A stretch of DNA of 24,000 bases from Paludibacter sp. GTDB taxonomy: Bacteria; Bacteroidota; Bacteroidia; Bacteroidales; Paludibacteraceae. Of this stretch, positions 1,983 to 16,919 are shown piece by piece. The stretch is from NCBI GenBank assembly GCA_028710895.1, contig JAQTTH010000002.1, positions 299,605 through 323,604 on the forward strand, written 5' to 3'. Every line of letters starts with the position of its first letter. The first letter of the stretch is position 1. The position numbers and the translations under genes were made by a program. The notes below the pieces were generated by a model that did no database searches, had not been told where the DNA came from, and saw only the letters and a list, made by a program, of their open reading frames with translations.

Positions 1983-2604
1983 ACATTTCTATTTGAATCA
2001 CTTTTCCATTTTTGTATTTTTTCCATTCACCCTTTGGTTGGTCGTTTTCATAAATTCCATCACGTGTTATACCATTGCCCAAATAATATCTGAAATATCC
2101 GTTACGCATACCGTTTTTAAAATAACCTTCGCACAATTTATTACCTTGTTCGTCAAAATCCTCCCACCATTCCGTTTTTTTATTGTTCAAGTATTCGCCC
2201 TTCTGTGCTATACTTCCGTTTGAATGATAGTGTATACCTGTTCCATTACGTTGGTCATTTTTGTACATTCCTTCAAACGATTTCAGTTTGCCTGGCAAAT
2301 ACTCTTCCCACCAACCTGTTTTTAAATTTTCCTCATAATGTCCGCCCCTTTGCCAATCACCATTCGGATAATAATATTTCCAATGGCCTGATTTTTTAGT
2401 ATTTATTAGCCAACCTTCATTTTGCAAATTTCCATTACTATAAAAAGATTTACTGTATTCTTTAGAAATGACAGCAACTTTACTTTCAACCAGTTTTCGA
2501 GTGCTGTTAGTAGTTTCAATTTCAGCTTCGTTATTTTTTCCACAAGCAAAAACTAACCCAACAACACACAAAAATACTGGAACAGTACGCAATAATATGC
2601 TCAT
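1972..2604 (-). CDS. MORN-repeat-variant (YwqK-like) lipoprotein
   Basis: Signal peptide ending in a lipobox-like LVFAC|GKNN. It carries repeated G-x-W-x-x-Y-Y-x-N-G / EG-x-Y-K-N-x-x-R-N-G units typical of MORN variant repeats. The track start at 2610 is a TTG; I prefer the ATG at 2604-2602, 2 nt after the upstream TGA. Confidence 0.7.
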   Translation of the reverse strand: MSILLRTVPVFLCVVGLVFACGKNNEAEIETTNSTRKLVESKVAVISKEYSKSFYSNGNLQNEGWLINTKKSGHWKYYYPNGDWQRGGHYEENLKTGWWEEYLPGKLKSFEGMYKNDQRNGTGIHYHSNGSIAQKGEYLNNKKTEWWEDFDEQGNKLCEGYFKNGMRNGYFRYYLGNGITRDGIYENDQPKGEWKKYKNGKVIQIEMYEQ

Positions 2605-2606
2605 AA

Positions 2607-3488
2607 TCAATGTATCAATCTAAATCCCACGTTAAAGGTTTCGCCTGCACCGGCATTTCTTCCAGCTGTAAATTTGGTATATAAAACTTCCGTTTCCAAT
2701 ACTCCTTTTATGAGTTGATATTTCATGCCAACTCCATTTTGTAAAAACCATGAAGAAATAAAGGGTTGCCCAAAACTTGGCCAATACTCATTTTGGAGGT
2801 AAAATGTAATTCTGTCGGTTGCATAATAGCTGAAAAAGGCACTCACCGGATTGGAAAAAGCCAGGCGACTTATGCCAGCTGCCTGTGGTTGTCGTTTATA
2901 GTAAAACCAAGGTGCAACCTGAAAGAACAGTTGAAATTTTGTTCCAATGGGCTGGTCGTAAAATAGTTGGGTGAACCAGATATAACTGTCATCGCTTAAG
3001 TAAGGTTTACCGTTTGTATGTCCTTCCAAATCAGTGGCAATAGGAAAAAGGAAAGTGGATTGCAGGGATAGTTTCGGCAAATTTCGAAAAGGTGCTATTT
3101 TTATTTTTGGGCCAAAACCAGCAACCGCCGTTCGTGAATTCATCGAGTTATCAAACTGAAATACAGCCAGTGGTGAGGAACCAGCAATGTCATTCCGAAC
3201 AGATTTAATCCAAATATCAGCCCCAATGTTCAATGTGGGGGAAATACCATACAGAAACTGGTTTATAGCTGTAAAATAACTGGCTCGTCCATTGTAATTG
3301 GTACGTGTCCCATTCGTATTGAACCCTTGGGTTTGTGTATACAGATTGTTGAATAATTTATATTCCCAATGGTTTTGACCAAGCAAAACCGAAGGGGAGT
3401 ATGCCTGCATGTTTATTTCCGCTACATCGTCTTGCGAATAGGCACAGATAGATAAGAAACAAAATAATATGATTAATTTATTTTTCAT
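2607..3488 (-). CDS. Putative outer-membrane beta-barrel protein (family not recognised)
   Basis: 293 aa with signal peptide MKNKLIILFCFLSICAYSQDD. The rest shows an alternating aromatic/hydrophilic pattern rich in G, Y, F, N and S, consistent with amphipathic beta strands. Its ATG overlaps the upstream TGA (ATGA at 3485-3488). Confidence 0.45.
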   Translation of the reverse strand: MKNKLIILFCFLSICAYSQDDVAEINMQAYSPSVLLGQNHWEYKLFNNLYTQTQGFNTNGTRTNYNGRASYFTAINQFLYGISPTLNIGADIWIKSVRNDIAGSSPLAVFQFDNSMNSRTAVAGFGPKIKIAPFRNLPKLSLQSTFLFPIATDLEGHTNGKPYLSDDSYIWFTQLFYDQPIGTKFQLFFQVAPWFYYKRQPQAAGISRLAFSNPVSAFFSYYATDRITFYLQNEYWPSFGQPFISSWFLQNGVGMKYQLIKGVLETEVLYTKFTAGRNAGAGETFNVGFRLIH

Positions 3489-4861
3489 TTTTTATAGCTG
3501 AATGTTTTACCAATTCTTCCTTCCAATTTTCCGTTCTCTAATTTCAATACACCACGTGGACAAACAGCCGAACAAATACCACAACCCACACACGATGCAC
3601 GTACAATGTTTTCACCTTTTTGAGCATACGCACGCACGTCAATACCCATTTCGCAATAAGTGGAGCAGTTACCGCACGAAATGCACTGACCACCATTGGT
3701 GGTAATCCGAAAACGTGATTTGAAGCGTTGAATTATGCCCATATAGGCTGCCATAGGGCAACCAAACCGGCACCATACACGACTACCCAATATAGGATAA
3801 AAACCAACGCCCACAACACCAGAGAAAGCAGCACCAATAAGAAAACCGTAAGGATGCGTGAAATAAGTGTAAATATCCAAGCCCAGGAATGTACTACTTC
3901 CACTGAAATAACCATACAATACAACTAATGTTATCAATGTGATTAATAATAAAATCCCATAAATCAAATACCGTTCAATTTTCCAGGCTCTCACACTTTT
4001 GTCAGACAAATGACGAAAAGGATCTCCGGCAGTTTCTGCCAAACCTCCGCAACCACACACCCAAGAACAATACCATCGTTTACCAAAATAATAGGTCAGG
4101 AAGGGCGTAATCACAAGAAAACCGATAATACCCCAAACGAGATAAACCATACCCAATGAGCCACCGTGCACCATATTATTTAAATGCCAATCGTTGAAAA
4201 AATAGTAGTTCAATGGCCAGAAATATTTAATGTCCATTGCAAAATATGCTTTATCCGAATTTAAACCCTCCATAATGTTGGGAATTAAATACGCCAAAAA
4301 AAGTTGTGCTATTATTACTACAATCGTGCGGATAATCTGGTATCTGTTGTGTCGGTACTTAAGAATAAATTTGATACCCAGTGTTGTAATTATGAGCGTA
4401 TAAAGCGTACCATACACAAACCATTGCGTAGCCGGCTTACCTGTAAAAAGGTCACTCAAGGGGTTAAATAAAGCGATAAGGTTGGTATTGGCTGCACCCT
4501 TTACTCCCTGACCTAAGTATTCGGGAAACCAATAAAGTACCACATAAAAACCGGTGAGAATAACTGCTGTTATCCAACCCAACAATCCTTTAGAAGTAAG
4601 CGAATTGAACCAGATCCCATGATTCTTAATGCCTGCGGGCAAGCTAATATAGGTTTTGATTGCATAAATCGACGTGCCGACAAAGATAGAAAGTAGCGAT
4701 ACGGTTAGCAGCAAACCGTTGTTTTCGAACTCAACACCAAATAATGTCACTGCCAAAATTAAAAGTCCGAGCGCAGAGAGCGACAGACCAAGCTTTTGAA
4801 GAAATCCTGTTTTATAGGGTTGAATATCAACCACTGACAAACTGTTATATATTGGTTTCAT
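3485..4861 (-). CDS. Polytopic membrane 4Fe-4S ferredoxin-type protein (NapH / CcoG(FixG) / RdxA-like)
   Basis: 458 aa with multiple hydrophobic helices. It carries the Cys motifs CSWVCGCGG and WCRFGCPMAA, plus two classical ferredoxin motifs, CISCGNCSTYCEMG and CVGCGICSAVCPRG. Confidence 0.8.
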   Translation of the reverse strand: MKPIYNSLSVVDIQPYKTGFLQKLGLSLSALGLLILAVTLFGVEFENNGLLLTVSLLSIFVGTSIYAIKTYISLPAGIKNHGIWFNSLTSKGLLGWITAVILTGFYVVLYWFPEYLGQGVKGAANTNLIALFNPLSDLFTGKPATQWFVYGTLYTLIITTLGIKFILKYRHNRYQIIRTIVVIIAQLFLAYLIPNIMEGLNSDKAYFAMDIKYFWPLNYYFFNDWHLNNMVHGGSLGMVYLVWGIIGFLVITPFLTYYFGKRWYCSWVCGCGGLAETAGDPFRHLSDKSVRAWKIERYLIYGILLLITLITLVVLYGYFSGSSTFLGLDIYTYFTHPYGFLIGAAFSGVVGVGFYPILGSRVWCRFGCPMAAYMGIIQRFKSRFRITTNGGQCISCGNCSTYCEMGIDVRAYAQKGENIVRASCVGCGICSAVCPRGVLKLENGKLEGRIGKTFSYKK

Positions 4862-4877
4862 ATTATAAATAGATTGA

Positions 4878-4898
4878 CCCCCTAACCCCCAAAGGGGG
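4878..4898 (-). terminator. G/C-only hairpin (C5-TAA-C5-AAA-G5) between the oxidoreductase and polyferredoxin genes; possible attenuator or weak terminator
   Basis: On the plus strand the sequence reads gaCCCCCtaaCCCCCaaaGGGGGaa, inside an otherwise AT-rich 59-nt gap. Either C5 run can pair with the G5 run. No clear U-tract follows on the minus strand. Confidence 0.3.
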
Positions 4899-4920
4899 AA
4901 TAAAGAGGGAGATTAGACTT

Positions 4921-6213
4921 TTAAATCAAATTACACACAGTTGATTTGTCGAATTGATTTTTAATTTCGGCTTCGTGATGTTTGAAAAACTCAGGATCGA
5001 AATTGGCTGTTTTCAAATTGTCAATTACATATTCTATGTTTTTCTTTTCCTGAATCCATTGGTCAAAGACTTCGTGTCGCAAGCGGATTCCAAACACATT
5101 TACACCTAAAATATGATTGCCAATCTTGTCGTAAATCAAACGAAGCGATTTAAATTCATTTTTTGATTTCCAAAAAAATGTAGCTTCGTTTTCTTTGGGT
5201 TTCGCCCATACCCAGCCATAAGTTTGATATTCCACATCGAAAAACTTAGCTGAATTAAACCATATTCCGGGTTGATAATCAGACCGATTACCACAAATGG
5301 AATTAGCAACCGTTTCGCCCATGATACGGCCTGTGTACCAAACCTGTTCAATGGGTTTTCGACCACCGGTGGGTGTACGGTGTTGTGCGCAATCGCCAAT
5401 GGCATACACATTCGCCACATTTGTTTCCAAAAATTCATTTACCAGAACTCCCCTTTCTATCTCAATTCCGGAATCTTTCAGAAAATCGATATTGGGTGTA
5501 ACGCCAACCGTTAAGCCAACAAGCTGACATTCAATTTCTTCGTTTTTGCTTGTTACAATAGATTTCACTTTTCCCGTACCAGAGTCTTTAATTTCTATAA
5601 GTTCTGTATTTAGTTGTAAATCAATATGGTGTAATTTTATCAATTCATTAATCATAGCTGATTCTTCATTAGGTAACACGCCATTCCAGAAACTTTTTTC
5701 GCGCACCAGCATGGTTACTTCAATGTTTTTTGATAATAGCATTTCAGCTAATTCAATGCCTATTAAGCCGCCACCTACAATTACTGCGCGCTTTATGGTT
5801 TTATAACTTTTGGTTAGTTTCTCCAAATCTTGTTTATGATATAAACCCTGTACACCGTCCAAATCCTGACCCGGCCAACCAAATTTGTTTGATTTAGAAC
5901 CAGTGGCAATAATTAAATCGTCGTATTGTAGCGATTTCCCTGTTTTCAACAGAACAGATTTTTGATTTGGATCCACTTTCAAAACTGTATCATGCAGCAA
6001 ATCAATCTTGTTCTTTTCCCAAAAATCATTTTCGTAGGGCTGTGTGTGCTCAAACTTCATGTGACCCATAAACACGTACATTAATGCGGTGCGACTGAAA
6101 AAAAAAGGACTTTCTTCGGAAATGACCGTGATACGGTTGTCGTTTTTTTTTCGGATATTTCGCGCTGCAGTAATTCCCGAAATTCCATTTCCTATAATCA
6201 CAATGTGTTTCAT
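4921..6213 (-). CDS. NAD(P)/FAD-dependent pyridine-nucleotide-disulfide-type oxidoreductase
   Basis: 430 aa. It has an N-terminal FAD Rossmann motif (KHIVIIGNGISGITAA), a second dinucleotide motif (RAVIVGGGLIGIELAE) and the conserved AIGDCA motif near the FAD site. A C-terminal extension of about 100 aa is of unknown function. Confidence 0.85.
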   Translation of the reverse strand: MKHIVIIGNGISGITAARNIRKKNDNRITVISEESPFFFSRTALMYVFMGHMKFEHTQPYENDFWEKNKIDLLHDTVLKVDPNQKSVLLKTGKSLQYDDLIIATGSKSNKFGWPGQDLDGVQGLYHKQDLEKLTKSYKTIKRAVIVGGGLIGIELAEMLLSKNIEVTMLVREKSFWNGVLPNEESAMINELIKLHHIDLQLNTELIEIKDSGTGKVKSIVTSKNEEIECQLVGLTVGVTPNIDFLKDSGIEIERGVLVNEFLETNVANVYAIGDCAQHRTPTGGRKPIEQVWYTGRIMGETVANSICGNRSDYQPGIWFNSAKFFDVEYQTYGWVWAKPKENEATFFWKSKNEFKSLRLIYDKIGNHILGVNVFGIRLRHEVFDQWIQEKKNIEYVIDNLKTANFDPEFFKHHEAEIKNQFDKSTVCNLI

Positions 6214-6301
6214 CTGTATATAATTGTTTTTTAGTTGTCAGATGGAACTCGCACATAAACATTTCCTCGTGAGTGAGTATATATTCGTTGTGCTCGTTTC
6301 A

Positions 6302-7114
6302 TTAGAGTTGCTGTATTAGTTGGGTGTATAATGTAATAAGTTTTGCTTCGGCTTGACCGGCAATGGCAATAATTTCGGGGATATTAACAGGTTTCAGATT
6401 GGCAGGGTCGCATTCGTCGGTCAGTACCGAAATGGCAGCACAAGGCAATCCAATTTGATTGGCTACCAATACTTCAGGCACAGTTGACATACCCACAGCA
6501 TCTGCTCCAATAATTTTCAAATAGCGATATTCCGCACGTGTTTCCAGATTTGGGCCTTTTAAAGCAGCATAAACGCCTTCCCGCAGAATTAGATTTTCTT
6601 TGAGTGCAATTTGTTTGAGTAAGTTGTTTAATTTACTTGAATAGGGTGCCGACATATCGGTAAATCGAGGACCTTGCGAATCATCCTTCAACCCAACAAG
6701 CGGACTATCGGGCAATAAATCAATGTGGTCATCAATAAGCATTAAATCACCTTTTTTGTAATCAAGATTAATAGCTCCTGCTGCATTTGAAAGTAATAAA
6801 TATTTCACGCCCAATGCTTTCATTACACGCACAGGAAAGGTTATTTGCTGCATAGAATAACCTTCGTAAAAATGGAAACGACCTTGCATAGCCAGCACCT
6901 TTTTGCCATTAAGCGTTCCATAAATCAATTTTCCGGAATGAAATTCAACGGTAGATTTTACGAAATTGGGGATATCAACATAATCAATTTGTTGACTAAT
7001 AGCAATTGAATCGACCAACTTGCCTAGCCCTGTTCCCAACACAATTCCTATTTCGGGTTGAAGAATGCCTTTGCTTTCTAAAAAGCTTACTGTTTCATTA
7101 ATTTGATTTTGCAT
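6302..7114 (-). CDS. Purine nucleoside phosphorylase (trimeric PNP/MTAP family)
   Basis: 270 aa. It shows motifs typical of inosine/guanosine-type PNPs: GIVLGTGLG, MQGRFHFYEGY, LLSNAAGAIN, GPNLETRAE and VGMSTVPEV. Confidence 0.85.
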   Translation of the reverse strand: MQNQINETVSFLESKGILQPEIGIVLGTGLGKLVDSIAISQQIDYVDIPNFVKSTVEFHSGKLIYGTLNGKKVLAMQGRFHFYEGYSMQQITFPVRVMKALGVKYLLLSNAAGAINLDYKKGDLMLIDDHIDLLPDSPLVGLKDDSQGPRFTDMSAPYSSKLNNLLKQIALKENLILREGVYAALKGPNLETRAEYRYLKIIGADAVGMSTVPEVLVANQIGLPCAAISVLTDECDPANLKPVNIPEIIAIAGQAEAKLITLYTQLIQQL

Positions 7115-7125
7115 AGAAATATTTT

Positions 7126-7956
7126 TTATGATTTACAATTGTCATTATTACAGCATCCGCCATCGGTTGTACTTTTTTTCATTGCCGGTTCCAGTATTTT
7201 AGTAAAGAACAATGCAGCGAATATTCCACCTACAATTGGAGCAAGCATATAAACGAGAAAAAATCCACCTTGTTGGTCGGGAAAAGCAGCATTACCCCAA
7301 CCAAACATCCAAGCTATCATTCGCGGTCCAAAATCTCTAGCCGGGTTCAAGCCTGCTTGTGTAAGTGGTGCTATCAGGCAAATTATTGAACTAACGGTTA
7401 ATCCTATAAACACAGGCGCAATAGCATTACTTGGCTTACCCACATTGCAGCCTTCGGTAAGTGCAAAAATCATGAGTAATAATATAAAAGTGCCAAAAGC
7501 TTCAGCTGCCATCGCCAATAGCATACCGATACCATGACCACCAATATTATAATACTCCCCAAACATCTTGGCTATTTTTGCTGATTCTTCGGAACCACGG
7601 ATTATATTTTGTGTTTGCTCAAACGAACTAATTGAAGACGAGAATAATATATATACCGTAAGACCTGCAACAAACGCGCCCAGTATTTGAGCGATAATGT
7701 ATGCCGGCAATCTGTCGGCTGACATTCGTTTGCTTATTACCATAGCAATACTAACAGCGGGGTTGAGATGTGCACAGCACAAATGTCGGGTGAGGTAAAT
7801 GGCAAGTGTGACACCAATTCCCCATACCAATGCTATCTGTAAAATGCCCTGATATCCGTTAAACAACACTGATACTGCTACCGAACCGCATCCAAAAAGA
7901 ACAAGTATAAATGTTCCCAAAAACTCACCTAAAAATTCGTTTTTATATTTTAGCAT
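7126..7956 (-). CDS. MIP-family channel (aquaglyceroporin-like) with a Cys-rich C-terminal tail
   Basis: 276 aa. Two NPA boxes are present (HLNPAVS and GLNPARD) with six hydrophobic helices. An unusual tail reads ...TTDGGCCNNDNCKS. Confidence 0.9.
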   Translation of the reverse strand: MLKYKNEFLGEFLGTFILVLFGCGSVAVSVLFNGYQGILQIALVWGIGVTLAIYLTRHLCCAHLNPAVSIAMVISKRMSADRLPAYIIAQILGAFVAGLTVYILFSSSISSFEQTQNIIRGSEESAKIAKMFGEYYNIGGHGIGMLLAMAAEAFGTFILLLMIFALTEGCNVGKPSNAIAPVFIGLTVSSIICLIAPLTQAGLNPARDFGPRMIAWMFGWGNAAFPDQQGGFFLVYMLAPIVGGIFAALFFTKILEPAMKKSTTDGGCCNNDNCKS

Positions 7957-7963
7957 ACATTTC

Positions 7964-8596
7964 TTACTTATATTCCTGAATTAATTTCACTAACTGCGTG
8001 TACTTCATTACATCTTCAACTTTATCCACATCATTCAGCGGAATTAAAGTGTTGTAGGTTAGTTTTTCATTTTCCAACACTGCTATCGTCTGTTTTAGTG
8101 TTTTGTCGGTACTCCATTCAATGTCTTCAAAAAGTGCCGAATGATTTCTCGTCATTCCCAATAAATAGTATCCTCCATCGTTAGCAGGACCAATCACACA
8201 ATCGGTTGATTTTAATTTTTCAAAAGCATCGGCAATTATTTCTGACGTTATTTCATAATTATCGCTGCCAATAATCACTACTCTCGAAAATCCAGCATCA
8301 AAAGCTGCATCAAACGCTCCTTTCATCCGAGTGCCTAAATCAGCTCCATGTTGCTCATGAACCTGAATATTACCCTTTATTTCTAATGAAAACTCTGAAG
8401 CTTCAGCCACAAAAACCAACTTTTCGACATCCAATTGCTCAACTACCTGAATGGTATAATTAAGCAATTCGGTATAAATCAAAAGTGCTTTCAGATTGCC
8501 AATCTCATTTCCAATTCGGGTCTTAACCTTACCTAATTCCGGGTTTCGGACAAACACGATTAAAGCATCGGTTTTATTCATACACTTTATCGCCAT
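7964..8596 (-). CDS. DUF2064 / CofC-like nucleotidyltransferase-fold protein (TIGR04282-type 'arsenosugar biosynthesis glycosyltransferase' family)
   Basis: 210 aa. The N-terminus ALIVFVRNPELGKVKTRIG and the later VIIGSDNYE and GPANDGGYYLLG motifs match my recollection of DUF2064. An alternative ATG at 8581 would shorten the overlap with the rhodanese gene from 23 nt to 8 nt. Confidence 0.65.
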   Translation of the reverse strand: MAIKCMNKTDALIVFVRNPELGKVKTRIGNEIGNLKALLIYTELLNYTIQVVEQLDVEKLVFVAEASEFSLEIKGNIQVHEQHGADLGTRMKGAFDAAFDAGFSRVVIIGSDNYEITSEIIADAFEKLKSTDCVIGPANDGGYYLLGMTRNHSALFEDIEWSTDKTLKQTIAVLENEKLTYNTLIPLNDVDKVEDVMKYTQLVKLIQEYK

Positions 8597-9083
8597 TAGT
8601 CAGCCACTTGCCCCAATCCTTATTATAGGCATGTATTTTATCTGTTTTTTGTTCGGTATTATCAACTACATCAAAGCCCAGGTTTACCCACTCAAAAAGT
8701 CCACCATAAAGATTAAAGACATTTTTATAACCCGCTTTTCGAAGTTTTTCACCTACTCGCTCGCTGCGGTATCCTACTGAGCAATAGACTACTATAGTAT
8801 CCGATTTGGCAATGTCTTTTACTTTTTCGAGTGTAAACGTGTCATAATCAACGAATTTTGCTCCATCAATATGGCTGGCATCGTATTCACTTTGTTTGCG
8901 TGTATCGAGTATTACGATAGCGTTTGGCTCTGATAGCTTTAGTTTTAATTCGGCTGCATTTATAAACGCAACGGTGTTTTTATACATTCCTTTTAGCATG
9001 GCATGATATTGAGTTGTTGATTGAGAAAATGTGCTACCAACAATTGTAAATAATGCGATAAATAATATTACATTTTTTTTCAT
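8574..9083 (-). CDS. Secreted single-domain rhodanese-like sulfurtransferase
   Basis: 169 aa with signal peptide MKKNVILFIALFTIVGSTFSQ. The rhodanese active-site loop is VVYCSVGYRSE, followed by the GGLFEW motif. Its ATG overlaps the arsS TGA (ATGA at 9080-9083). Confidence 0.8.
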   Translation of the reverse strand: MKKNVILFIALFTIVGSTFSQSTTQYHAMLKGMYKNTVAFINAAELKLKLSEPNAIVILDTRKQSEYDASHIDGAKFVDYDTFTLEKVKDIAKSDTIVVYCSVGYRSERVGEKLRKAGYKNVFNLYGGLFEWVNLGFDVVDNTEQKTDKIHAYNKDWGKWLTNGDKVYE

Positions 9084-10132
9084 AACAAAACTATTTCACC
9101 GCCACAACTTGACCCCGCACCAGCAGTGCAGCCATAGCAGTGTTGCGATACTTTTACTTCGCGTTTCAATAAATAATCCAAATCGAAATTCGCCACGTGA
9201 TTTCGTTCATCAGCAGCCACTTTCATGTTCAGCATCTGATTAAAATCACAATCGAATAAATAACCATCCCAACTTACCGAAATCATATTCCGACACATCA
9301 CATTTTCGGCAGCCAATGGATTAAAAGCATTAACAAGCTCTTCCATGTACGAAACGTAATTATCTGTATTTACCAAGTAGTTAAGAAAACGGCTAACAGG
9401 CAAGTTTGTAAGCGCAAATAGTTTATTGAAAACAATGCCGTGTTCGCTCCACAAATGCTCTTTAAACTCGGTTTCGAGCATTGTTTGCGAAGCTGGCAAA
9501 AATGCTCCGGCCGGATTGTAAACCAAATCCAGCAACAAACCACTATCAGGTTTGCCGTAACCTCTGGCATTCAACATCTTCAATGCTTTTATTGAGGTTT
9601 CAAAAACACCTTTTCCACGTACTTTATCGGTGCGGGTGGCATCATAAAACGGCAAAGAACTCACTACTTCCACGCCGTTTTCGGCAAAGAAATCAGGTAA
9701 GTCATTGTGCTCATCAGCTTCCAAAAGTATAGTCAGATTGCAGCGTACAATAATCCGTTTGCCCAAAGCGTGGCAAGCCTTTACAAACCAACGGAAATGT
9801 GGGTTCAATTCCGGTGCTCCACCTGTGAGATCAACAATTGGTATATTAAATTTCTGAATGGCATTTAAGCATAACTGCATGGTTTCTTTGGTCATAATTT
9901 CCTGGCGGTCAGGACCAGCATTTACATGGCAGTGACGGCAAGTCTGGTTACACATTTTACCTACATTTACCTGAAATACATCCAAACCAACAGGTTTTAA
10001 TGAGCTGATATTGTGTTCTTTCAACTTGTCTTTGAAATATGGAACATTAGTCGACTTTGTGGTTACAAGTTCCAATACCTGAAGTTGCCGTAAGGCTTCC
10101 GCTTCTTCTTTCGCTTTATTATATGCTATCAT
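9080..10132 (-). CDS. arsS: ArsS-type radical SAM / Cys-rich domain protein (arsenosugar biosynthesis radical SAM enzyme)
   Basis: 350 aa. The CX3CX2C radical-SAM motif is CNQTCRHCHVNAGPDR. The characteristic C-terminal Cys-rich end is HCYGCTAGAGSSCGGEIVLL. The ORF is uninterrupted, so this is the Cys form rather than the selenocysteine form. Confidence 0.85.
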   Translation of the reverse strand: MIAYNKAKEEAEALRQLQVLELVTTKSTNVPYFKDKLKEHNISSLKPVGLDVFQVNVGKMCNQTCRHCHVNAGPDRQEIMTKETMQLCLNAIQKFNIPIVDLTGGAPELNPHFRWFVKACHALGKRIIVRCNLTILLEADEHNDLPDFFAENGVEVVSSLPFYDATRTDKVRGKGVFETSIKALKMLNARGYGKPDSGLLLDLVYNPAGAFLPASQTMLETEFKEHLWSEHGIVFNKLFALTNLPVSRFLNYLVNTDNYVSYMEELVNAFNPLAAENVMCRNMISVSWDGYLFDCDFNQMLNMKVAADERNHVANFDLDYLLKREVKVSQHCYGCTAGAGSSCGGEIVLL

Positions 10133-10143
10133 TACATTTGTAT

Positions 10144-10479
10144 TTAGAAACTTATTTCTTCGTTTTTATTCATCATTTGCACACTATGAGCCAATACAGC
10201 TCCACCTTTTATGGCAGCTCCCACATGAACTGCTTCCATCATTTGAGCTTCCGAATATCCATTTTTCACACAATTCGTAGTATATGCATCAATGCAATAA
10301 GGACATTGAACTACATGCGCAACCGCTAATGCAATTAAATCTTTTTCTTTTTCCGTTAATGCTCCCTCTTTGAATACTTCGCCATACCAGGCGAAAAACT
10401 TGTCGGCTAAGGGTTTCTGATAATTTCCAATGGTACCAAACTTTTTTAAGTCTTCCGGTTTATAATAATCTTTTGCCAT
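10144..10479 (-). CDS. AhpD-like / carboxymuconolactone-decarboxylase-fold CxxC protein ('arsenosugar biosynthesis-associated peroxidase-like protein' family)
   Basis: 111 aa with a CPYCIDAYT redox motif. Its size and its position 11 nt upstream of arsS match that family's known context. Confidence 0.75.
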   Translation of the reverse strand: MAKDYYKPEDLKKFGTIGNYQKPLADKFFAWYGEVFKEGALTEKEKDLIALAVAHVVQCPYCIDAYTTNCVKNGYSEAQMMEAVHVGAAIKGGAVLAHSVQMMNKNEEISF

Positions 10480-10484
10480 ACTGT

Positions 10485-11195
10485 TTATTCGTTTAAATTC
10501 CAGTTATATGTTAAGTAACTAATTTTTGCGTTTTTGTCAATTTTTACTTTTGAGTATTGATTCAAAAAATCAATCAGTTTTGATTTTTGTGTAAAATCGG
10601 CTGTAAACCAACTGAATATTTCTGAAATTTCAATGTTTTGATTGGTAATTTTATTTCTTCCAGTATCATTCAGAAAACGTTTCGCACTTTCATCAAGCTG
10701 AACATCCAACGTTTCCGGCAAATAAGCTTTGTTGCTCAATATCGGACATGATTTAGCTGCACAAACAATGGCAAAATGTATGCGTGCGTCTTTATAAGTA
10801 GGACGTAAAATCTTGTTCTCTATGTCGTTGAGCGTATAGGTCTTATTCTCTATTGTTATGAATTTTTTATCCCAAGGTGCACCAATATCCTTAATGCTTT
10901 TGAGTGGATAATTATCCACTATCAATTTTACTGTAAAAGCATTGTAGGCATTTATCCAATATGCTTTCGCTTCGTTGACAGTCCATTTTGCTTTGGGACT
11001 CGTGGTTTTGAGTAGTTGCAAATAGTTATCCAATTCCGCTGCATTGCTTTTAATAGCTTTGTAGTTTACATTGCCCGTAGCCGATACGTATTTATTTAAA
11101 AATCCGTTCCATTTTTCGTGAGAAAAATTACTAATTTGCGCTGAAATTAAGTGAGAACTAATGACTAAACTTAGTGTCAATATTATTGTTTTCAT
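10485..11195 (-). CDS. Secreted DUF547 domain protein
   Basis: 236 aa with signal peptide MKTIILTLSLVISSHLISAQ. The motifs WINAYNAFTV and HFAIVCAAKSCPIL match the DUF547 core. Confidence 0.65.
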   Translation of the reverse strand: MKTIILTLSLVISSHLISAQISNFSHEKWNGFLNKYVSATGNVNYKAIKSNAAELDNYLQLLKTTSPKAKWTVNEAKAYWINAYNAFTVKLIVDNYPLKSIKDIGAPWDKKFITIENKTYTLNDIENKILRPTYKDARIHFAIVCAAKSCPILSNKAYLPETLDVQLDESAKRFLNDTGRNKITNQNIEISEIFSWFTADFTQKSKLIDFLNQYSKVKIDKNAKISYLTYNWNLNE

Positions 11196-11216
11196 ATTTA
11201 TATTTTTAATTGTAGT

Positions 11217-12248
11217 TTAGCAACCGCAGTTTGCTGGCGAGGAAACGTTTGAGCTTGAGGGCGAACAATCAAAAGCCCCAAAATGGGTTGACTTATCGCC
11301 AGTAATACGGAAATGCTCCGAGAAACGGGTTTCCTGCACCATGGCTGTCGTGTTACCACAAACCAACATGGGTTTACCTGTAATAAACTTGTGATGATCG
11401 TCTAATTCAAAAAAGTGAGAGTGATTCGGAATTGTCCCCAAATAAATGGCTACCTGACCGTAATCTTCGCAAATATCTTCTAACTCCAACTTAAATGCTC
11501 TAATGGTCAACGAAGTAAATTCAATCAATCCAACTTTCTCTTCAATTTCGGTATTGTTAACCGTAATGGGCGAAGAATTAGTAACACGAAAGTCATTACA
11601 TCCAATCTTTAACATCAATCGTCTAAAATCTTCAACGTACATAGCTCCACCCAAACATTCACCATGCAATACTTTGTCATTTGCCAAATGCGTTGGAATT
11701 CGTTGGTTAGCAAAAACATCCGAAAAATAAAGTTCCCCGCCCGGTTTCAACACCCTGAAAATTTCTTTGAAAACTGACTCCTTATCGGGCGATAAATTGA
11801 TAACGCAATTAGAAATAACCACATCTATAGAATTATCTTCTATGCCAATTTCTTTCAGATCCTCAATATAGCCTTGTTTGAAAACCACATTGGGTTTTTC
11901 AAAACCAAACTTGCTCGTTTGCGTATCAACATGTCTCTCGGCCACTGCCAGTTGCTCTGCTGTCATATCAACTCCAATGGACAATCCATTGCTGCCAACT
12001 AATTTAGATACAATATACACATCGCGACCTGAACCACAGCCTAAATCAAGTACGGTTTTTCCTTCGAGCAAAGCCGGAATTGGCGAACCGCAACCATAAA
12101 AGCGGTCTTTTATTTCGTTGTCAATCTGGCTTAAAGCCAACTTTACATCCGGCGAAAGTTTTTCGGTGCTGCAACAACAAGCATTGGTTTGTAAATCGCT
12201 GCTGCTTTGAAGTATTTCGCCATAATATTTTTTTACATCTTCTTTCAT
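11217..12248 (-). CDS. arsM: Arsenite S-adenosylmethionine methyltransferase (ArsM / AS3MT family)
   Basis: The SAM motif is VLDLGCGSGRD. All four As(III)-binding Cys positions of ArsM are present: NACCCS, FYGCGSP, SNCVINLSPDK and HGECLGGA. An extra C-terminal NCGC is present. The track start at 12311 is a TTG; I prefer the ATG at 12248-12246 (MKEDVKKYYGEIL...), which matches the usual ArsM N-terminus. Confidence 0.9.
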   Translation of the reverse strand: MKEDVKKYYGEILQSSSDLQTNACCCSTEKLSPDVKLALSQIDNEIKDRFYGCGSPIPALLEGKTVLDLGCGSGRDVYIVSKLVGSNGLSIGVDMTAEQLAVAERHVDTQTSKFGFEKPNVVFKQGYIEDLKEIGIEDNSIDVVISNCVINLSPDKESVFKEIFRVLKPGGELYFSDVFANQRIPTHLANDKVLHGECLGGAMYVEDFRRLMLKIGCNDFRVTNSSPITVNNTEIEEKVGLIEFTSLTIRAFKLELEDICEDYGQVAIYLGTIPNHSHFFELDDHHKFITGKPMLVCGNTTAMVQETRFSEHFRITGDKSTHFGAFDCSPSSSNVSSPANCGC

Positions 12249-12291
12249 AGATTTATATTTTGATTCTTGTATATAGCTATTTTTATCATTA

Positions 12292-13338
12292 TCATTTGGT
12301 TTTAAATGCAATCTTTATAATTTCTTGTGCCGACTTATTCTGAGGGGTGTAATCAGTATTGTTTATACCACCTGCATTAGTATGTTGCGGATACCATTTC
12401 CACAAAAAAGCACCTTTGAACCATGGTTTATCAGCAAAAGTTTGAAAAAATGCCTGCAATGCATTGCTTTGCGATTGCTGGTTTACGATTGTCGAAATAG
12501 GATTCCAGGGTTCTTTAGCACATTGGTCAACACTTTTGTAACCAATCTCCGTAAAAATGACCGATTTGTTTTTTGATAATCGGTATTGATCAATTTCATT
12601 CATTTCCTTTTGCCAACTGCTTACAAGACTTGCCACAGTTGGCGTGTTTTCATTCGACAAGGGAAAATAGGCATCAATCCCTATATAATCCAACTTATTC
12701 CAAAAAGGCACTTGTTGGTAATCATCCCAATTGGCGGCATAAATCAATTTACCACCGTAAAAAGTTCGGATTGTATCTATTAAATTTGACCAATACTGTG
12801 GACGCTTTTCCACCACCATTTTCAATTCAGTGCCAATGCAAAACATTTCAATATCGAGTGAATCGGCTAAATGAGCAAAATGCAAAATATAAGTTGAATA
12901 ATTTTTCTCCCATGCAGTCCATTCAACTTCAGTAGTAAGATTGAATGCAGCTGGATAAGAATTTCTAACCCAAATTTGGGGTTTCAACATCGTTTTAATT
13001 TCTTTTTCTCTTGCTAATTTTGTGGTTACAATCACTCCCAAATCCGTTTCGCCCCACCATTGATGATTTGGATCGAAAGTAACTTGGGTAGAATTCAATT
13101 GACCAAAAGCAAATGGCATTTGAGTAATATAATTGCAATTTACATCAACTATCGGTGTTATGGCTGTACTATCAAGTGTTTTTCCTCCTGCCACAAAACT
13201 CAAACCATTGAATTCGAAGTGGGCTGAAGCAATGGGCTTTTCATTTACTATTGGTTCTTTTTGACAAGCAAAAAAAGTAATTATTGCGCACATTATCAAC
13301 ACGAGCAATTGATGTTTTTTTAATTTCCTGAATACCAT
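12292..13338 (-). CDS. Clan GH-A-like (beta/alpha)8 glycoside hydrolase, lipoprotein (GH113/GH5-like; family unverified)
   Basis: 348 aa with a lipoprotein signal ITFFAC|QKE. Candidate catalytic glutamates sit in CIGTELK and VIFTEIGYKS, spaced as in 4/7-superfamily hydrolases. It is a paralog of the next ORF and shares the block FWNKLDYIGIDAYFPLS. Confidence 0.55.
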   Translation of the reverse strand: MVFRKLKKHQLLVLIMCAIITFFACQKEPIVNEKPIASAHFEFNGLSFVAGGKTLDSTAITPIVDVNCNYITQMPFAFGQLNSTQVTFDPNHQWWGETDLGVIVTTKLAREKEIKTMLKPQIWVRNSYPAAFNLTTEVEWTAWEKNYSTYILHFAHLADSLDIEMFCIGTELKMVVEKRPQYWSNLIDTIRTFYGGKLIYAANWDDYQQVPFWNKLDYIGIDAYFPLSNENTPTVASLVSSWQKEMNEIDQYRLSKNKSVIFTEIGYKSVDQCAKEPWNPISTIVNQQSQSNALQAFFQTFADKPWFKGAFLWKWYPQHTNAGGINNTDYTPQNKSAQEIIKIAFKTK

Positions 13339-14324
13339 CTCTTAATAATTTTCTCAACTGGTTTATGCTGCGGTGTATAATCCGAATTTGGTTTGTCTAT
13401 GTAAGTGGCATCGTTATTGTACCATTTCCAAACAAAACCTCCAGCTACAAAATCTGTATTCCATACCGCATCATAAAATGCAGTGTAGGCATTTATTTGT
13501 GCAGCCATATTTATTTTCTCGGTTTTGGGCGTTTGTTCAAACTCCCATTGTTTGAATGCTGCATAATCTATGCTTCTGTATCCATATTCGGTAAACAAAA
13601 TCTTTCTACCGTACTTTAAACTCAATTGCTTCATTTTCAATAAAGGTAATTTCCATGCTTTTTGTAACTCTTCCACCGAAGGTGTTTTCTTAGCCGAAAG
13701 TGGGAAATAAGCATCTATCCCGATATAATCTAATTTGTTCCAAAAACTAATGTGATTAAATTCTTCAAAATTAGCCGAATAGGTTAATTTTCCTTTATAC
13801 ACATTTCTGATTTTTGAAATAAGCTCTTCAAAAAAACGACCGTGCAATTGTGTATACACTTGTAATTCAGTGCCTATTCCAAGTAGCTCCACATGCTCCG
13901 ATTGAGCAATTTGTGCTAAAAAAAGCAGATAATTACAATAATTTTGTTCCCATTCAATTCTTGTATTACCCGATAAATTAAAACTTCCAGCCCAAACATC
14001 ATTCATCAACCAACAATGTGGTTTTAAGAACACATGTAAACCTTGCTTTTTGCTACGATTAATTAGCATTCTTAATCCAATTTCGGTATCCCCCCACCAA
14101 TTTTTTGAGCTGTTATACTCCACAATACTACTATTTTTATAAATGAATGCAAAAGGACATATTGCCACCCAATTAGCATTTACTCTGTAAATTGAATCAA
14201 TACCAGTAATTTCAGTTTTATATTTTGGCGAAACAAAAGATACACCATTTATTTTTCTAAAACTCTCACCATGAATCAACTGTGCATACCCTATAATACA
14301 AAAAACAAATACAAGAATTCTCAT
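13320..14324 (-). CDS. Clan GH-A-like (beta/alpha)8 glycoside hydrolase, secreted; tandem paralog
   Basis: 334 aa with signal peptide MRILVFVFCIIGYAQLIHG. It has GIGTELQ and ILFTEYGYRS motifs. It overlaps the downstream paralog by 19 nt. It is the first gene of the 16-gene array. Confidence 0.55.
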   Translation of the reverse strand: MRILVFVFCIIGYAQLIHGESFRKINGVSFVSPKYKTEITGIDSIYRVNANWVAICPFAFIYKNSSIVEYNSSKNWWGDTEIGLRMLINRSKKQGLHVFLKPHCWLMNDVWAGSFNLSGNTRIEWEQNYCNYLLFLAQIAQSEHVELLGIGTELQVYTQLHGRFFEELISKIRNVYKGKLTYSANFEEFNHISFWNKLDYIGIDAYFPLSAKKTPSVEELQKAWKLPLLKMKQLSLKYGRKILFTEYGYRSIDYAAFKQWEFEQTPKTEKINMAAQINAYTAFYDAVWNTDFVAGGFVWKWYNNDATYIDKPNSDYTPQHKPVEKIIKRWYSGN

Positions 14325-14344
14325 AAACGACTTATTTGAATATA

Positions 14345-14375
14345 TAGTCGAGAAGATCTACTATTCCTGACAAAT
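14345..14375 (-). promoter_or_regulatory. Copy A of the ATTTGTCAGGAAT-N12-CGACTA motif; putative ECF-type promoter of the 16-gene array
   Basis: The plus strand reads TAGTCG-agaagatctact-ATTCCTGACAAAT. It ends 21 nt upstream of the ATG at 14324. It is identical at 19 fixed positions to the copies at 16087-16117 and 16994-17024. Confidence 0.6.
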
Positions 14376-14381
14376 AAATAA

Positions 14382-15212
14382 TTATTTTATTTGAAGTGGA
14401 TAAATAAACTGTCCCCAAAACATCTTGGGAAAAATCTTTTCATCGCCAAAACCTAATTCAATATCTCTCCCTGAGCCCGGTATGTAGTTGGTTTTAAACA
14501 AATAATCCCAAACGCTCAACGACAATCCAAAATTTACACCGTAACGCCGGCTTTCAGGAAGTTTCTTGGCATGATGCCAAATATGCATTTGTGGATTATT
14601 TACGATATATTTAAACCATCCCAACTGAATAGAAAAATTAGAATGATTGAAATGCCCGATGGCAATAGTAATGATATACATGATGGTAAAATCCTGTGCA
14701 CTCATACCAAGCAATGCCAACGGAACATATTGCAAAACGCTATAAACCAGTCCTTCCACCCAATGGTAGCGTAGATGTGCGGCAAATCCCATTTCTTTGA
14801 CAGAATGATGCACTTTGTGGAATTGCCACAACCAATCGACCCGATGCAGCAAGCGGTGAATATTAAATTGTACAAAATCGCGCAACAGAAAAAATACAAG
14901 TATTTGAACCCACGAAGGCAATGAACTGATATTTAATAGATTCAATTGTTGTATACCCATCGTATTTAACCCGACCCAAAGATATTGATGTGTCAGGCTT
15001 GCTAAAAAATTAAGCAATAACACCGGGAAAATGAACAGGTTAAAAAACATATAAAAGCCATCGAGCCAAAAATCTTTCCGAAATATAGATTGATTTTTCC
15101 GCCACGGAAAGAATATTTCTAATCCCCAAAAGAAAATGGAAAGCCCTACAAACCAATGGAAAAATGGATTTAAAACTGTTTCCGTTATATTATTTTCCAA
15201 TGTTTCTAACAT
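14382..15212 (-). CDS. Fatty acid hydroxylase / sterol desaturase superfamily membrane protein
   Basis: 276 aa with several TM helices. The di-iron histidine boxes are HRLLHR, HKVHH and HIWHH. Confidence 0.8.
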   Translation of the reverse strand: MLETLENNITETVLNPFFHWFVGLSIFFWGLEIFFPWRKNQSIFRKDFWLDGFYMFFNLFIFPVLLLNFLASLTHQYLWVGLNTMGIQQLNLLNISSLPSWVQILVFFLLRDFVQFNIHRLLHRVDWLWQFHKVHHSVKEMGFAAHLRYHWVEGLVYSVLQYVPLALLGMSAQDFTIMYIITIAIGHFNHSNFSIQLGWFKYIVNNPQMHIWHHAKKLPESRRYGVNFGLSLSVWDYLFKTNYIPGSGRDIELGFGDEKIFPKMFWGQFIYPLQIK

Positions 15213-15234
15213 ATAAGTTTTCTATTGATAATTT

Positions 15235-15795
15235 TCAATAATTATATCCAATACCCTTGTCGTCTTCTAATTGCACACCCAACGACAAAACAATGCGATT
15301 GACAAAATTGAAATACGCAACAACCAAAACTGCATCCAATACTCCCTCATCTGAAATTCCTACAGTTTTAAGTTCTTTTGTATAATCCGCTTTTTCGTGC
15401 AAATGCGGAAACAATGTTAGTTCCTTAGCAAATTTACATAAGGCATTTTCTTTGACAGAAAGCTCTTTTACTTCCATATTTGAAAATAACAATTGTATCT
15501 TCGATTCATTTTTCCAATATTTATTCAACGCTTCCGAATGATGTGTTTTGCAATAATTACAACCATTATTTACTGATACAACCACGGCCATCATTTCGCG
15601 TTCGGCTCGTGATAAAGCCGAATGGTTAAACATAATTTCCATGTACAAATTCATGTGAGCCACTATACTTTCGGGATGTAAACTCTGAATTGTGTGCACT
15701 GCGGCAAGTTTAGCACGACTTTTTACAAGGTCATCGTAAATCTCTTTCAATCTGCCGGTTGATTCTTCGTGTTGTATTACTTTTATTCGGGACAT
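15235..15795 (-). CDS. Carboxymuconolactone decarboxylase / AhpD-fold 'peroxidase-related enzyme'
   Basis: About 186 aa with a CNYCKTHH CxxC motif in an all-helical context. The track start is a TTG at 15798; an ATG lies at 15795. Confidence 0.7.
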   Translation of the reverse strand: MSRIKVIQHEESTGRLKEIYDDLVKSRAKLAAVHTIQSLHPESIVAHMNLYMEIMFNHSALSRAEREMMAVVVSVNNGCNYCKTHHSEALNKYWKNESKIQLLFSNMEVKELSVKENALCKFAKELTLFPHLHEKADYTKELKTVGISDEGVLDAVLVVAYFNFVNRIVLSLGVQLEDDKGIGYNY

Positions 15796-15840
15796 CAATT
15801 AATATTATTGTTAATTTTATCATATGCTTATTTATTGCTA

Positions 15841-16050
15841 CTACATTGCTTTTACAGCAGAATAAGTTGACACTAAATAGGGCACACAATACGTTAGAAG
15901 CATTTTAAATATAGAAATTCGTTCAAAATCCAACCCAATTATGGAATTCCACTGATTGATGAGATTCAGAATTGTACCTACCACAATGGCTACTTTTAAA
16001 GCTGTAAGTACTATTTGCTTTTCAAAAGCTTGTTGGGAAAAGATATTCAT
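15841..16050 (-). CDS. Small two-TM membrane protein resembling NrtS-type nitrate/nitrite transporter family
   Basis: The segments ALKVAIVVGTILNLINQ and LLTYCVPYLVSTYSAVKA match my recollection of the NrtS family. The track start at 16086 is a TTG that abuts the promoter-like motif, so I prefer the ATG at 16050. Confidence 0.5.
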   Translation of the reverse strand: MNIFSQQAFEKQIVLTALKVAIVVGTILNLINQWNSIIGLDFERISIFKMLLTYCVPYLVSTYSAVKAM

Positions 16051-16086
16051 AGAGTTAATTTGTTGAGTTACATTGCTACACACCAA

Positions 16087-16117
16087 TAGTCGGCAAGAGC
16101 TAATATTCCTGACAAAT
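16087..16117 (-). promoter_or_regulatory. Copy B of the ATTTGTCAGGAAT-N12-CGACTA motif; putative ECF-type promoter of the NrtS-like/AhpD-like/hydroxylase operon
   Basis: The plus strand reads TAGTCG-gcaagagctaat-ATTCCTGACAAAT, 37 nt upstream of the ATG at 16050. Its spacer also matches copy A at 8 of 12 positions. Confidence 0.6.
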
Positions 16118-16150
16118 CAATCAAAAATAATTTTCAGAACACAAAGATAT

Positions 16151-16176: not shown

Positions 16177-16216
16177 TGCGGTTTGATATTTTTCGTTACT
16201 TTTGCAGAAAAAAAGT

Positions 16217-16648: not shown

Positions 16649-16651
16649 AAC

Positions 16652-16912: not shown

Positions 16913-16919
16913 AAGTACT

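Follow-up and report, generated by a model that had tools for sequence, protein, structure and literature searches.

Does a cluster of arsenic genes in an anaerobic Paludibacter make complex organoarsenicals, or is it a resistance operon? The question is raised by a 24,000-nt stretch of Paludibacter sp. contig JAQTTH010000002.1 (hereafter the window, meaning the whole stretch, to whose numbering all coordinates refer), in which genes for an ArsM-type arsenite methyltransferase and an ArsS-type radical S-adenosylmethionine (SAM) enzyme lie among six further genes at 6302–12248. The initial annotation had read these eight genes as an organoarsenical biosynthesis cluster rather than a resistance operon, and this choice is supported by the family score of ArsS, by the conservation of the neighbourhood, and by the resistance genes not being found. 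We put at roughly two in three the probability that the window carries a MarR-linked block that makes an adenosyl-derived (5-deoxy-5-dimethylarsinoyl-ribosyl) organoarsenical and does not export arsenic. That its product would be a classical arsenosugar is something we infer.

ArsS and the core genes

All eight open reading frames (ORFs) of the initial annotation are present on the minus strand at the places given there, and the families proposed for six of them, namely AhpD-like, DUF547, rhodanese, DUF2064, MIP and purine nucleoside phosphorylase (PNP), were confirmed by NCBIfam or Pfam scores above cutoffs:

6302–7114, minus strand: trimeric-type PNP (NF006054, 342 bits; cutoff 218)
7126–7956, minus strand: GlpF-like aquaglyceroporin, MIP (TIGR00861, 178.8 bits; cutoff 171.25)
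7964–8596, minus strand: TIGR04282 (DUF2064, CofC-like) protein of nucleotide-diphospho-sugar-transferase fold (199.1 bits; cutoff 134)
8574–9083, minus strand: rhodanese with signal-like N-terminus (NF045521, "near glycosyltransferase", 194.9 bits; cutoff 145)
9080–10132, minus strand: ArsS radical SAM enzyme (TIGR04167; Pfam Radical_SAM and DUF3641)
10144–10479, minus strand: AhpD-like CPYC protein, 111 aa (TIGR04169)
10485–11195, minus strand: DUF547 protein with signal-like N-terminus and CxxxxC (Pfam DUF547, 98.5 bits; cutoff 27)
11217–12248, minus strand: long-form ArsM/AS3MT-type methyltransferase (ATG at 12248; a TTG ORF is listed to 12311)

The signal-like N-termini of the rhodanese and DUF547 proteins were assigned by reading alone. 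The spacing of −23 to +21 nt claimed for these genes was also recovered (gaps of 11, 7, −23, −4, 11, 5 and 21 nt with the ArsM ATG at 12248), the −23-nt overlap being start-dependent (the public call of the DUF2064 protein, 205 aa, gives an 8-nt overlap).

Pfam models were run against all listed window ORFs of at least 80 aa and the partial ORF at the left edge, leaving aside six overlapping ORFs (1957–2223 on the plus strand and five inside annotated genes), and NCBIfam models against the cluster genes and the same partial ORF. Among the ORFs so scanned there was, as previously claimed, no arsR, arsB/acr3, arsC or arsA. The ars resistance operons (arsRBC, arsRDABC, acr3, arsM-arsR) may, like the window, include an ArsM-family methyltransferase and an aquaglyceroporin; the window, however, is without ArsR, ArsB/Acr3, ArsC, ArsA, ArsD and ArsH, and its regulators are MarR and an extracytoplasmic function (ECF) sigma factor.

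ArsS scored 438.1 bits on TIGR04167 (cutoff 300), whereas the next-best radical SAM model reached only 40 bits, which places it inside this family and in no other radical SAM clade; its Pfam DUF3641 score was 179.9 bits. Both motifs reported for it, CNQTCRHC and CYGCTAGAGSSCGG, are in the translation, and the cysteines of CX3CX2C as well as the five C-terminal cysteines are unchanged across 84 homologues. Two further cysteines outside the known motifs, C280 and C295, are invariant too. The window proteins have identical counterparts in a metagenome-assembled genome (MAG) of Paludibacter sp.; one of these, MDD4991158.1, bears the NCBI name "arsenosugar biosynthesis radical SAM protein ArsS", and the AhpD-like neighbour in the same MAG is named "arsenosugar biosynthesis-associated peroxidase-like protein". 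Because NCBI already uses these names, the core assignment is not new and is public at annotation level.

According to PMC13598754 and PMC12159101, ArsS adenosylates dimethylarsenite (DMAs(III)) to 5'-deoxy-5'-dimethylarsinoyl-adenosine (DDMAA; Cheng et al. 2021), a reaction shown for the cyanobacterial enzyme only. In bioRxiv 10.1101/2022.09.23.509062, which cites Xue et al. 2019, arsS is described as the first committed arsenosugar step, and in Synechocystis arsM and arsS share a transcript. From this family chemistry, the window ArsS would be expected to convert DMAs(III) to DDMAA as well. The arsM-arsS pair of Synechocystis sp. PCC 6803 and the window both combine a TIGR04167 ArsS with an ArsM-family gene on one strand, in both the expected series is As(III) to DMAs(III) to DDMAA, and neither is an efflux-type resistance operon. 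The window differs in its host, an anaerobic, non-photosynthetic member of the Bacteroidales, in an ArsM of another clade, in the DUF547 and AhpD-like genes between ArsM and ArsS, and in about 20 added conserved partners with MarR/ECF regulation.

At least 592 of 600 pattern-matched genome stretches that we scanned encode ArsS relatives. The best 80 of these (54–64% identity; labels nearly all Bacteroidota), the window and loci L081–L085 made up a set of 86 ArsS loci, in which genes within 10 kb of ArsS were counted. The AhpD-like gene adjoins ArsS in 79 of the 86 (median gap 14 nt; 11 nt here), and its window product scores 172 bits on TIGR04169 (cutoff 120), with a CPYC that is invariant among homologues. 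TIGR04282 genes, always on the strand of ArsS, and ArsM-family genes follow with 37 loci each, then PNP (36), DUF547 and a TIGR04283 glycosyltransferase (30 each), rhodanese (16), a flavoprotein (14), a hydroxylase and glycoside hydrolase family 113 (GH113) proteins (9 each), and a NapH-like protein (8). Both these counts and the order shared with L083–L085, set out below, show a gene arrangement that is conserved in relatives.

The methyltransferase and its channel

Which enzyme would supply the DMAs(III)? Along residues 2–340, its full length, the window methyltransferase aligns with two solved ArsMs, 5EVJ from Chlamydomonas (E = 1.9e-112) and 4FR0 from Cyanidioschyzon (E = 2.7e-85), and it scores 115.5 bits on Pfam Methyltransf_31. 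The four As(III)-binding cysteine positions that it was said to retain are C26, C53, C148 and C198 (ATG numbering), invariant in 37 cluster-linked ArsM-family proteins and across both ArsM types. Four others (C260, C297, C328 and C343) are 92–97% conserved over both ArsM clades. The protein falls short of NF038099, the model for arsenosugar-type ArsM (121.6 bits; cutoff 400), and of the generic NF008823, whose model covers the N-terminal 272 positions (199 bits; cutoff 263). The cluster methyltransferases of all six relatives tested pass NF038099 (562–581 bits), and their identity to the window ArsM is only 24–29%. Judged by its sequence, the window ArsM is a genuine long-form, algal-type arsenite methyltransferase of a clade other than the arsenosugar type; in NCBI it is called just "methyltransferase domain-containing protein". 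The arsinothricin genes arsQML likewise pair a C–As-forming radical SAM enzyme with an ArsM-type methyltransferase, but ArsL belongs to a different family and transfers a 3-amino-3-carboxypropyl group, and the window ArsM reaches only 164.9 bits on NF040538 (cutoff 500).

Whether arsenic is the element handled at all can be asked at this point. The description of TIGR04167 speaks of a "(seleno)protein" family, selenium contexts often include rhodanese and AhpD-like CxxC proteins, and, as a weak hint, several NCBIfam selenoprotein fusion models match the domains of ArsM and AhpD with scores far under their cutoffs. That the cluster acts on selenium or antimony instead is nevertheless very improbable: the C-terminal ArsS position is Cys in 84 of 84 homologues, the methyltransferase has the full set of As(III)-binding cysteines and matches solved arsenite methyltransferases, and the known biochemistry of ArsS is with DMAs(III) only.

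Members of the window ArsM clade (63–69% identity) carry the source names Nitrospirae, Deltaproteobacteria, Desulfobulbaceae, Zetaproteobacteria, Phycisphaerales and Balneolaceae, and the clade lies beside ArsS in L082, L083 and the Nitrospirota locus L087/L088 (GCA_016214855.1). In this Nitrospirota genome, an ArsM of 66% identity adjoins a MIP gene amid genes for DUF547, a TIGR04167 ArsS, TIGR04169 and a glycoside-hydrolase-like protein. Unlike the window, the locus is without PNP, TIGR04282 and rhodanese, its hydrolase is an 877-aa GH63-like protein where the window has GH113, and its ArsS (301 aa) is without the ~45-aa N-terminal extension; it has in addition a SoxA/TsdA-type cytochrome c, a DUF3047 protein and a VTT-domain protein. 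Because the same pair flanks ArsS there, the window-type ArsM together with the aquaglyceroporin is a second, recurrent way to feed ArsS and no accident of one genome. The Nitrospirota ArsS locus also lies a few kb from genes whose products carry MerF-type (PF11431) and pyridine-nucleotide-disulfide-reductase Pfam domains.

The closest PDB structure to the window channel is E. coli GlpF 1FX8 (E = 2.6e-50). The window protein retains NPARD and the W48 equivalent and has Ala at the position of the GlpF selectivity-filter residue F200; its C-terminus is a Cys-rich tail, GGCCNNDNCKS. GlpF is a known entry route for As(III). Among Bacteroidota relatives, a link between MIP and ArsS is confined to L081 and L083, with a weak case in L024.

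The pair could also be read as resistance by methylation, with ArsM and the aquaglyceroporin detoxifying arsenic (the channel serving for exit, as proposed for AqpS-type channels), inserted near ArsS, whose chemistry would be secondary. A wide distribution of the ArsM clade, its solitary occurrence at the Balneola locus L086, its proximity to detoxifying algal ArsMs and the rarity of MIP in Bacteroidota ArsS loci (1 of 80) would all fit. We hold this to be quite improbable, since the window ArsM replaces the dedicated arsenosugar ArsM and the window has no second methyltransferase. Moreover, the order ArsM–DUF547–AhpD–ArsS is found in the window, L081 and L083–L085 (L082 differs by an insertion), the same ArsM clade and MIP flank ArsS in Nitrospirota, and neither ArsR, ArsH nor an efflux pump was found in the window.

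A neighbourhood larger than the core

How far does the ArsS cluster extend? By ArsM identity, the nearest relatives are L082 (90%) and L083–L085 (73%; a groundwater Porphyromonadaceae MAG). L083–L085 run from ECF sigma, anti-sigma, divergent MarR, an NrtS-like ORF, AhpD (186 aa) and hydroxylase through a GNAT acetyltransferase (not in the window) to two GH113 genes, ArsM, DUF547, AhpD (111 aa) and ArsS. Past ArsS in L083 come a 728-aa ORF (not in the window) and then rhodanese, DUF2064 and MIP. In L082 the regulators, AhpD and hydroxylase recur, but the two GH113 genes are missing and additional genes separate ArsM from ArsS. The interval 6302–12248 of the initial annotation thus holds as regards its core genes but not as a boundary: L083–L085 share the order from ECF sigma onward, and the conserved unit, at about 1–17471, is about three times larger. 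The block measures about 17–20 kb and is co-directional apart from the divergent MarR gene. To the right of the core it comprises the following:

12292–13338, minus strand: GH113-family TIM-barrel glycoside hydrolase, lipoprotein-signal-like N-terminus by reading (Pfam GH113, 152.7 bits)
13320–14324, minus strand: second GH113-family protein, signal-like N-terminus (Pfam GH113, 126 bits)
14382–15212, minus strand: membrane di-iron fatty-acid-hydroxylase/sterol-desaturase-family protein (Pfam FA_hydroxylase, 103.5 bits)
15235–15798, minus strand: AhpD-family "peroxidase-related enzyme", 186 aa, CNYC (TIGR01926, 141.9 bits; cutoff 81.8)
15841–16050, minus strand: NrtS-family small membrane protein, 69 aa (NF038050, 42.6 bits; cutoff 25)
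16151–16176, no strand: perfect 12+12-nt palindrome, candidate MarR operator, between the divergent MarR gene and the block's first gene
16202–16648, plus strand: MarR-family regulator, divergent (Pfam MarR)
16652–16930, minus strand: small anti-sigma factor with HKSMCDAC, an HxxxCxxC zinc-binding motif (NF052368, 45.8 bits; cutoff 50)
16920–17471, minus strand: ECF-type sigma-70 factor (TIGR02937, 81.4 bits, cutoff 42.9; TIGR02943, 141 bits, cutoff 162.2)

Co-directional minus-strand genes run from 15798 to the left edge, and the NrtS-family gene is counted as the first of the block. The first GH113 protein matches GH113 mannanases in the PDB (E about 1e-23), and its gene is kept in L083–L085, L035 and L074–L077; the tandem pair is conserved in L083–L085. 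The hydroxylase gene lies directly 3' of an arsenosugar-type ArsM in L044, L051 and L074 (50–51% identity) and occurs in L082 and L083 as well. In L082 and L083–L085, the 186-aa AhpD gene keeps its position, an ORF of 70–74 aa at the NrtS position clusters with the window ORF, and the divergent orientation of MarR is retained. The palindrome core GTTTCANNTGAAAC, followed by TATCTTTG, occurs at the same place in L083–L085 and in no other of 90 loci; we take TATCTTTG to be a Bacteroidota-type −7 box, which the palindrome overlaps. The ECF sigma gene upstream of the cluster is kept in L082, L083–L085, L017 and L042, the last two being Chitinophagaceae-type loci with sigma and anti-sigma homologues beside ArsS. 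The sequences of these regulators suggest thiol-reactive sensing in place of ArsR control.

On the left, the block continues with a module of redox, outer-membrane and glycosyltransferase (GT) genes:

4921–6213, minus strand: FAD/NAD(P)H pyridine-nucleotide-disulfide-family oxidoreductase, the flavoprotein (Pfam Pyr_redox_2, 187 bits)
3485–4861, minus strand: NapH-like membrane iron-sulfur (polyferredoxin) protein (several Fer4; TIGR02163, 66.8 bits, below cutoff)
2607–3488, minus strand: predicted outer-membrane beta-barrel channel, 293 aa (no Pfam or NCBIfam match; structure model)
1972–2610, minus strand: MORN-repeat protein, lipoprotein-signal-like N-terminus by reading (Pfam MORN_2, below cutoff)
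1287–1982, minus strand: small GT2, AglJ/dolichyl-phosphate-hexose-synthase-like (TIGR04182, 131 bits; cutoff 325)
2–1282, minus strand: membrane GT2, cellulose-synthase/PgaC-like (Pfam Glyco_tranf_2_3, Glycos_transf_2 and Glyco_trans_2_3; CelA and PgaC below cutoff)

The AlphaFold2 model of the 293-aa protein is an all-beta barrel (pLDDT 92.8), for which Foldseek ranked 4RL8, a COG4313 outer-membrane channel, first (E = 9e-12; TM 0.68/0.73), so that by its model the protein would be an outer-membrane beta-barrel channel of an undescribed family. In P0264, P0266 and about 10 other proteins, an N-terminal DUF547 is fused to this barrel family. In the PDB, the small GT2 weakly matches DPM synthase as well as mannosyl- and glucosyl-3-phosphoglycerate synthases; as a candidate for the TIGR04283 partner it was rejected (37.1 bits against a cutoff of 182). 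The membrane GT2 gene, which also follows the small GT2 in L066, L072, L073 and L077, has its 3' end cut at the window edge; the whole gene (490 aa) is on L090, followed, beyond the window edge, by a GT87/MptB-like GT-C gene. Farther along L090, at 7861–10848 and past the GT87 gene, lie tRNA_anti-like, YceI, thioredoxin, AhpC/TSA peroxiredoxin and cysteine-dioxygenase-type genes; in L042, an AhpC homologue (60% identity) stands between an arsenosugar-type ArsM and PNP. A 99-aa GTG ORF at 729–1028 on the plus strand, inside the membrane GT2 gene and without a family match, is most likely no gene.

Is this module tied to the arsenic genes? In a reverse test, partners within 10 kb were counted in 80 metagenome loci anchored on the NapH-like protein. 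The flavoprotein was found in 74, GT2 in 50, membrane GT2 in 48, GT87 in 30, DUF547 in 28, GH113 in 21, TIGR04282 in 15, PNP and rhodanese in 14 each, TIGR04283 in 13, arsenosugar-type ArsM in 9 and ArsS in 5; in 17, weak MORN homologues separated GT2 from the NapH-like gene. Restricted to the 38 loci whose upstream flank is 8 kb or longer, the count gave 19 with an arsenosugar-annotated gene and 19 without. In L103, L104, L106, L122, L146 and L155, the flavoprotein/NapH-like pair occurs without any other tested partner within 10 kb, so the pair has an arsenic-independent context too. The linkage of the left module to arsenosugar genes is far above chance and survives rearrangement, yet it is not obligatory.

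The main rival starts from here: an ArsS unit (~6302–12248) would stand beside an independent envelope-mannan/redox-stress system (the left block, the two GH113 genes and the hydroxylase/AhpD pair), the two being neighbours by shared ancestry. Besides the many loci in which the flavoprotein/NapH-like pair stands alone or with only GTs, DUF547 and the barrel, and the 19 of 38 fully flanked loci without an arsenosugar-annotated gene, this explanation is favoured by three sets of proteins that resemble ordinary mannose-glycan chemistry (the GH113 mannanase-like proteins, the GT2 akin to DPM synthase and the GT87/MptB-like GT-C), and by an 88-nt gap between the PNP and flavoprotein genes. The linkage is seen again, however, across several families of Bacteroidota and in a MAG with the label Ignavibacteria (L043, L050), and it outlasts rearrangements such as that of L067, where ArsS is immediately preceded by the membrane GT2; DUF547 is common to both units and fused to the barrel; and the hydroxylase follows right behind an arsenosugar-type ArsM in L044, L051 and L074. 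We consider two separate units unlikely, though by no means negligible.

Compared with the arsenosugar neighbourhoods that NCBIfam describes for Bacteroidota, the window passes TIGR04167, TIGR04169, TIGR04282 and NF045521, and it has PNP, DUF547, GH113, the hydroxylase and the flavoprotein/NapH-like/GT2 module in common with Flavobacteriia loci such as L073–L077. It differs in having an algal-type ArsM in place of NF038099, no TIGR04283, an added GlpF-like channel and another gene order. No window protein is a TIGR04283 glycosyltransferase (the best score is the 37.1 bits of the small GT2), whereas relatives reach 212.5 bits (L073) and 190.1 bits (L082). Because this partner, present in 30 of the 86 related loci, is missing, the description of the pathway as complete-looking overstated the case. 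The window is a variant of the ArsS-type cluster inside a larger conserved neighbourhood: its ArsM is of another clade, an aquaglyceroporin is added and TIGR04283 is missing.

Possible steps from DDMAA onward

What could follow the ArsS reaction? It is the only arsenosugar step known, and reviews treat the later ones as hypothetical, drawing adenine removal and aglycone attachment as a "nucleosidase" step (PMC10456119). No account of the later steps was found in the literature searched. The window cluster and its relatives yield candidates for them in PNP, TIGR04282, the glycosyltransferases and DUF547.

PNP is the commonest ArsS partner without an existing "arsenosugar" label, and its order and orientation vary among loci. 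All 34 linked PNPs with a residue there have Asp at human Asn243 and Ile or Val at His257 (Asp/Ile in the window). The positions were set by alignment to 8SWT (SHEEV there, NIPEI in the window) and by the human PNP sequence. An Asp at the position that sets base specificity goes with a preference for 6-aminopurines, and the absence of the His that binds the 5'-OH fits a substrate that is bulky at its 5' end, as with MTAP. The idea that the Asp is a cluster-specific adaptation was rejected, as 4LNA, 4M1E and 8SWT have Asp too. Read from sequence, the combination of Asp with Ile/Val, together with the genomic linkage, is retained as a candidate lead for the adenine-removal step.

The PNP might instead be no pathway enzyme but a housekeeping one, a salvage enzyme for adenine or 5'-deoxyadenosine from radical SAM turnover, or a supplier of As(III) by nucleoside arsenolysis and thiol reduction; mammalian PNP shows such a "PNP arsenate reductase" activity in vitro. 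The protein does pass the generic PNP equivalog NF006054, its Asp/hydrophobic signature is found in PDB PNPs also, and ArsC was not found in the window. We regard this as doubtful, given that a housekeeping gene would be unexpected near ArsS in 36 of 86 loci with shifting order and strand, and that ArsS uses up the adenosyl group, releasing no 5'-deoxyadenosine.

Further partners add conserved cysteines and a transferase fold. The DUF2064 protein matches PDB entry 3CGX (E = 2.5e-28). The active-site Cys101 of the rhodanese is invariant in 16 homologues; a role as a Cdc25/Acr2-type arsenate reductase was judged unlikely on reading the sequence, as the loop CSVGYR has the sulfurtransferase-like Cys-4-Arg and not Cys-5-Arg spacing. 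Across the locus set, C145 and C150 of the DUF547 protein are each 97% conserved, and in alignment A1 they do not vary; H140, R131 and R138 are among its further invariant residues. Its AlphaFold2 model (pLDDT 93, pTM 0.87) gave no Foldseek match in the PDB at E 0.001 (best TM 0.26), and it has no sequence relative there.

On the preferred, biosynthetic reading, As(OH)3, and possibly glycerol, would enter through the GlpF-like channel. By known family chemistry, the long-form ArsM would convert As(III) to DMAs(III) with SAM, and ArsS would transfer the 5'-deoxyadenosyl group of SAM onto DMAs(III), yielding DDMAA. The linked PNP may then take off adenine by phosphorolysis, leaving a dimethylarsinoyl-ribose-1-phosphate donor, from which the TIGR04282 protein and the glycosyltransferases could move the arsenoribosyl unit onto an acceptor. 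The CxxC AhpD-like proteins, the rhodanese and DUF547 with its CxxxxC might serve in the redox chemistry of thiols and arsenic. The left module (flavoprotein/NapH-like pair, barrel, GT2s and GT87) could handle or export an envelope-associated conjugate, and the two GH113 proteins and the di-iron hydroxylase may be grouped with it in an extracytoplasmic leg. Control would lie with MarR and a putatively thiol-sensing ECF sigma/anti-sigma pair, without use of ArsR.

Several observations weigh against this reading. As described above, the window ArsM falls outside the arsenosugar clade and stands by itself in Balneola, TIGR04283 is missing, half of the fully flanked NapH-anchored loci lack arsenosugar-annotated genes, and six loci have the flavoprotein/NapH-like pair on its own. 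The closest solved PNPs, 4LNA and 4M1E, share the Asp/hydrophobic signature, which is therefore a clade trait and does not prove that this PNP has a dedicated role. Judging by their sequences, several partners are extracytoplasmic, and a simple cytoplasmic pathway does not account for them. Promoter and terminator scans of the window yielded no operon boundaries: sigma-70 promoter-like sites were fewer than in shuffles, with a consensus unsuited to Bacteroidota (for which reason the scans were not used for boundaries), and terminator-like sites were about at the shuffle mean. Finally, no arsenic speciation data for this organism or for any Bacteroidota ArsS were found in the literature searched.

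In a more specific version, the product would be an envelope-associated (lipid- or glycan-linked) arsenoribosyl conjugate and not free arsenosugar alone, with a PNP-made donor, transfer by TIGR04282 and GT proteins, and DUF547, the rhodanese and the flavoprotein/NapH-like pair in a periplasmic or outer-membrane leg. We offer this version tentatively, as a minority possibility. Accessory genes of other ArsS loci that are not in the window encode, over L047, L055, L056, L022, L034, L057 and L083 taken together, a 342-aa glyoxalase/VOC protein, a PlsC-type acyltransferase, an SDR protein and, in L083, a GMC oxidoreductase; they are hints of lipid-linked or further-modified products at those loci.

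ArsS clusters are common in heterotrophic Bacteroidota (at least 592 of 600 stretches) and extend to an anaerobe with relatives among paddy-soil and groundwater taxa. Provided that such clusters are active, the complex organoarsenicals of sediments and soils need have no algal or cyanobacterial source. No paper describing the Bacteroidota cluster or its partner genes was found in the literature searched.

A few minor observations remain. L026 (labelled Brevundimonas vancanneytii) and L072 (Candidatus Rokubacteria) show Bacteroidota-type synteny and may be mis-binned or transferred; L070 (labelled Bdellovibrionales) has an ArsS without detected partners. Short opposite-strand ORF families (clusters 2, 8, 9, 10, 18 and 21) were dismissed as shadows of conserved genes. 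Rfam and tRNA scans of the window gave no riboswitch and no tRNA integration site. Immediately next to the ECF sigma gene, at 17566–24000, lies an integrated mobile element. It encodes an abortive-infection protein (Abi_2), a zinc-ribbon protein with DUF6371, a DUF3987 protein, two proteins of HTH_17 type, a 364-aa protein without assigned family and, at the window edge, a phage-integrase fragment; L083 has HD-domain, NMN-transporter and GlyRS genes at this position instead.

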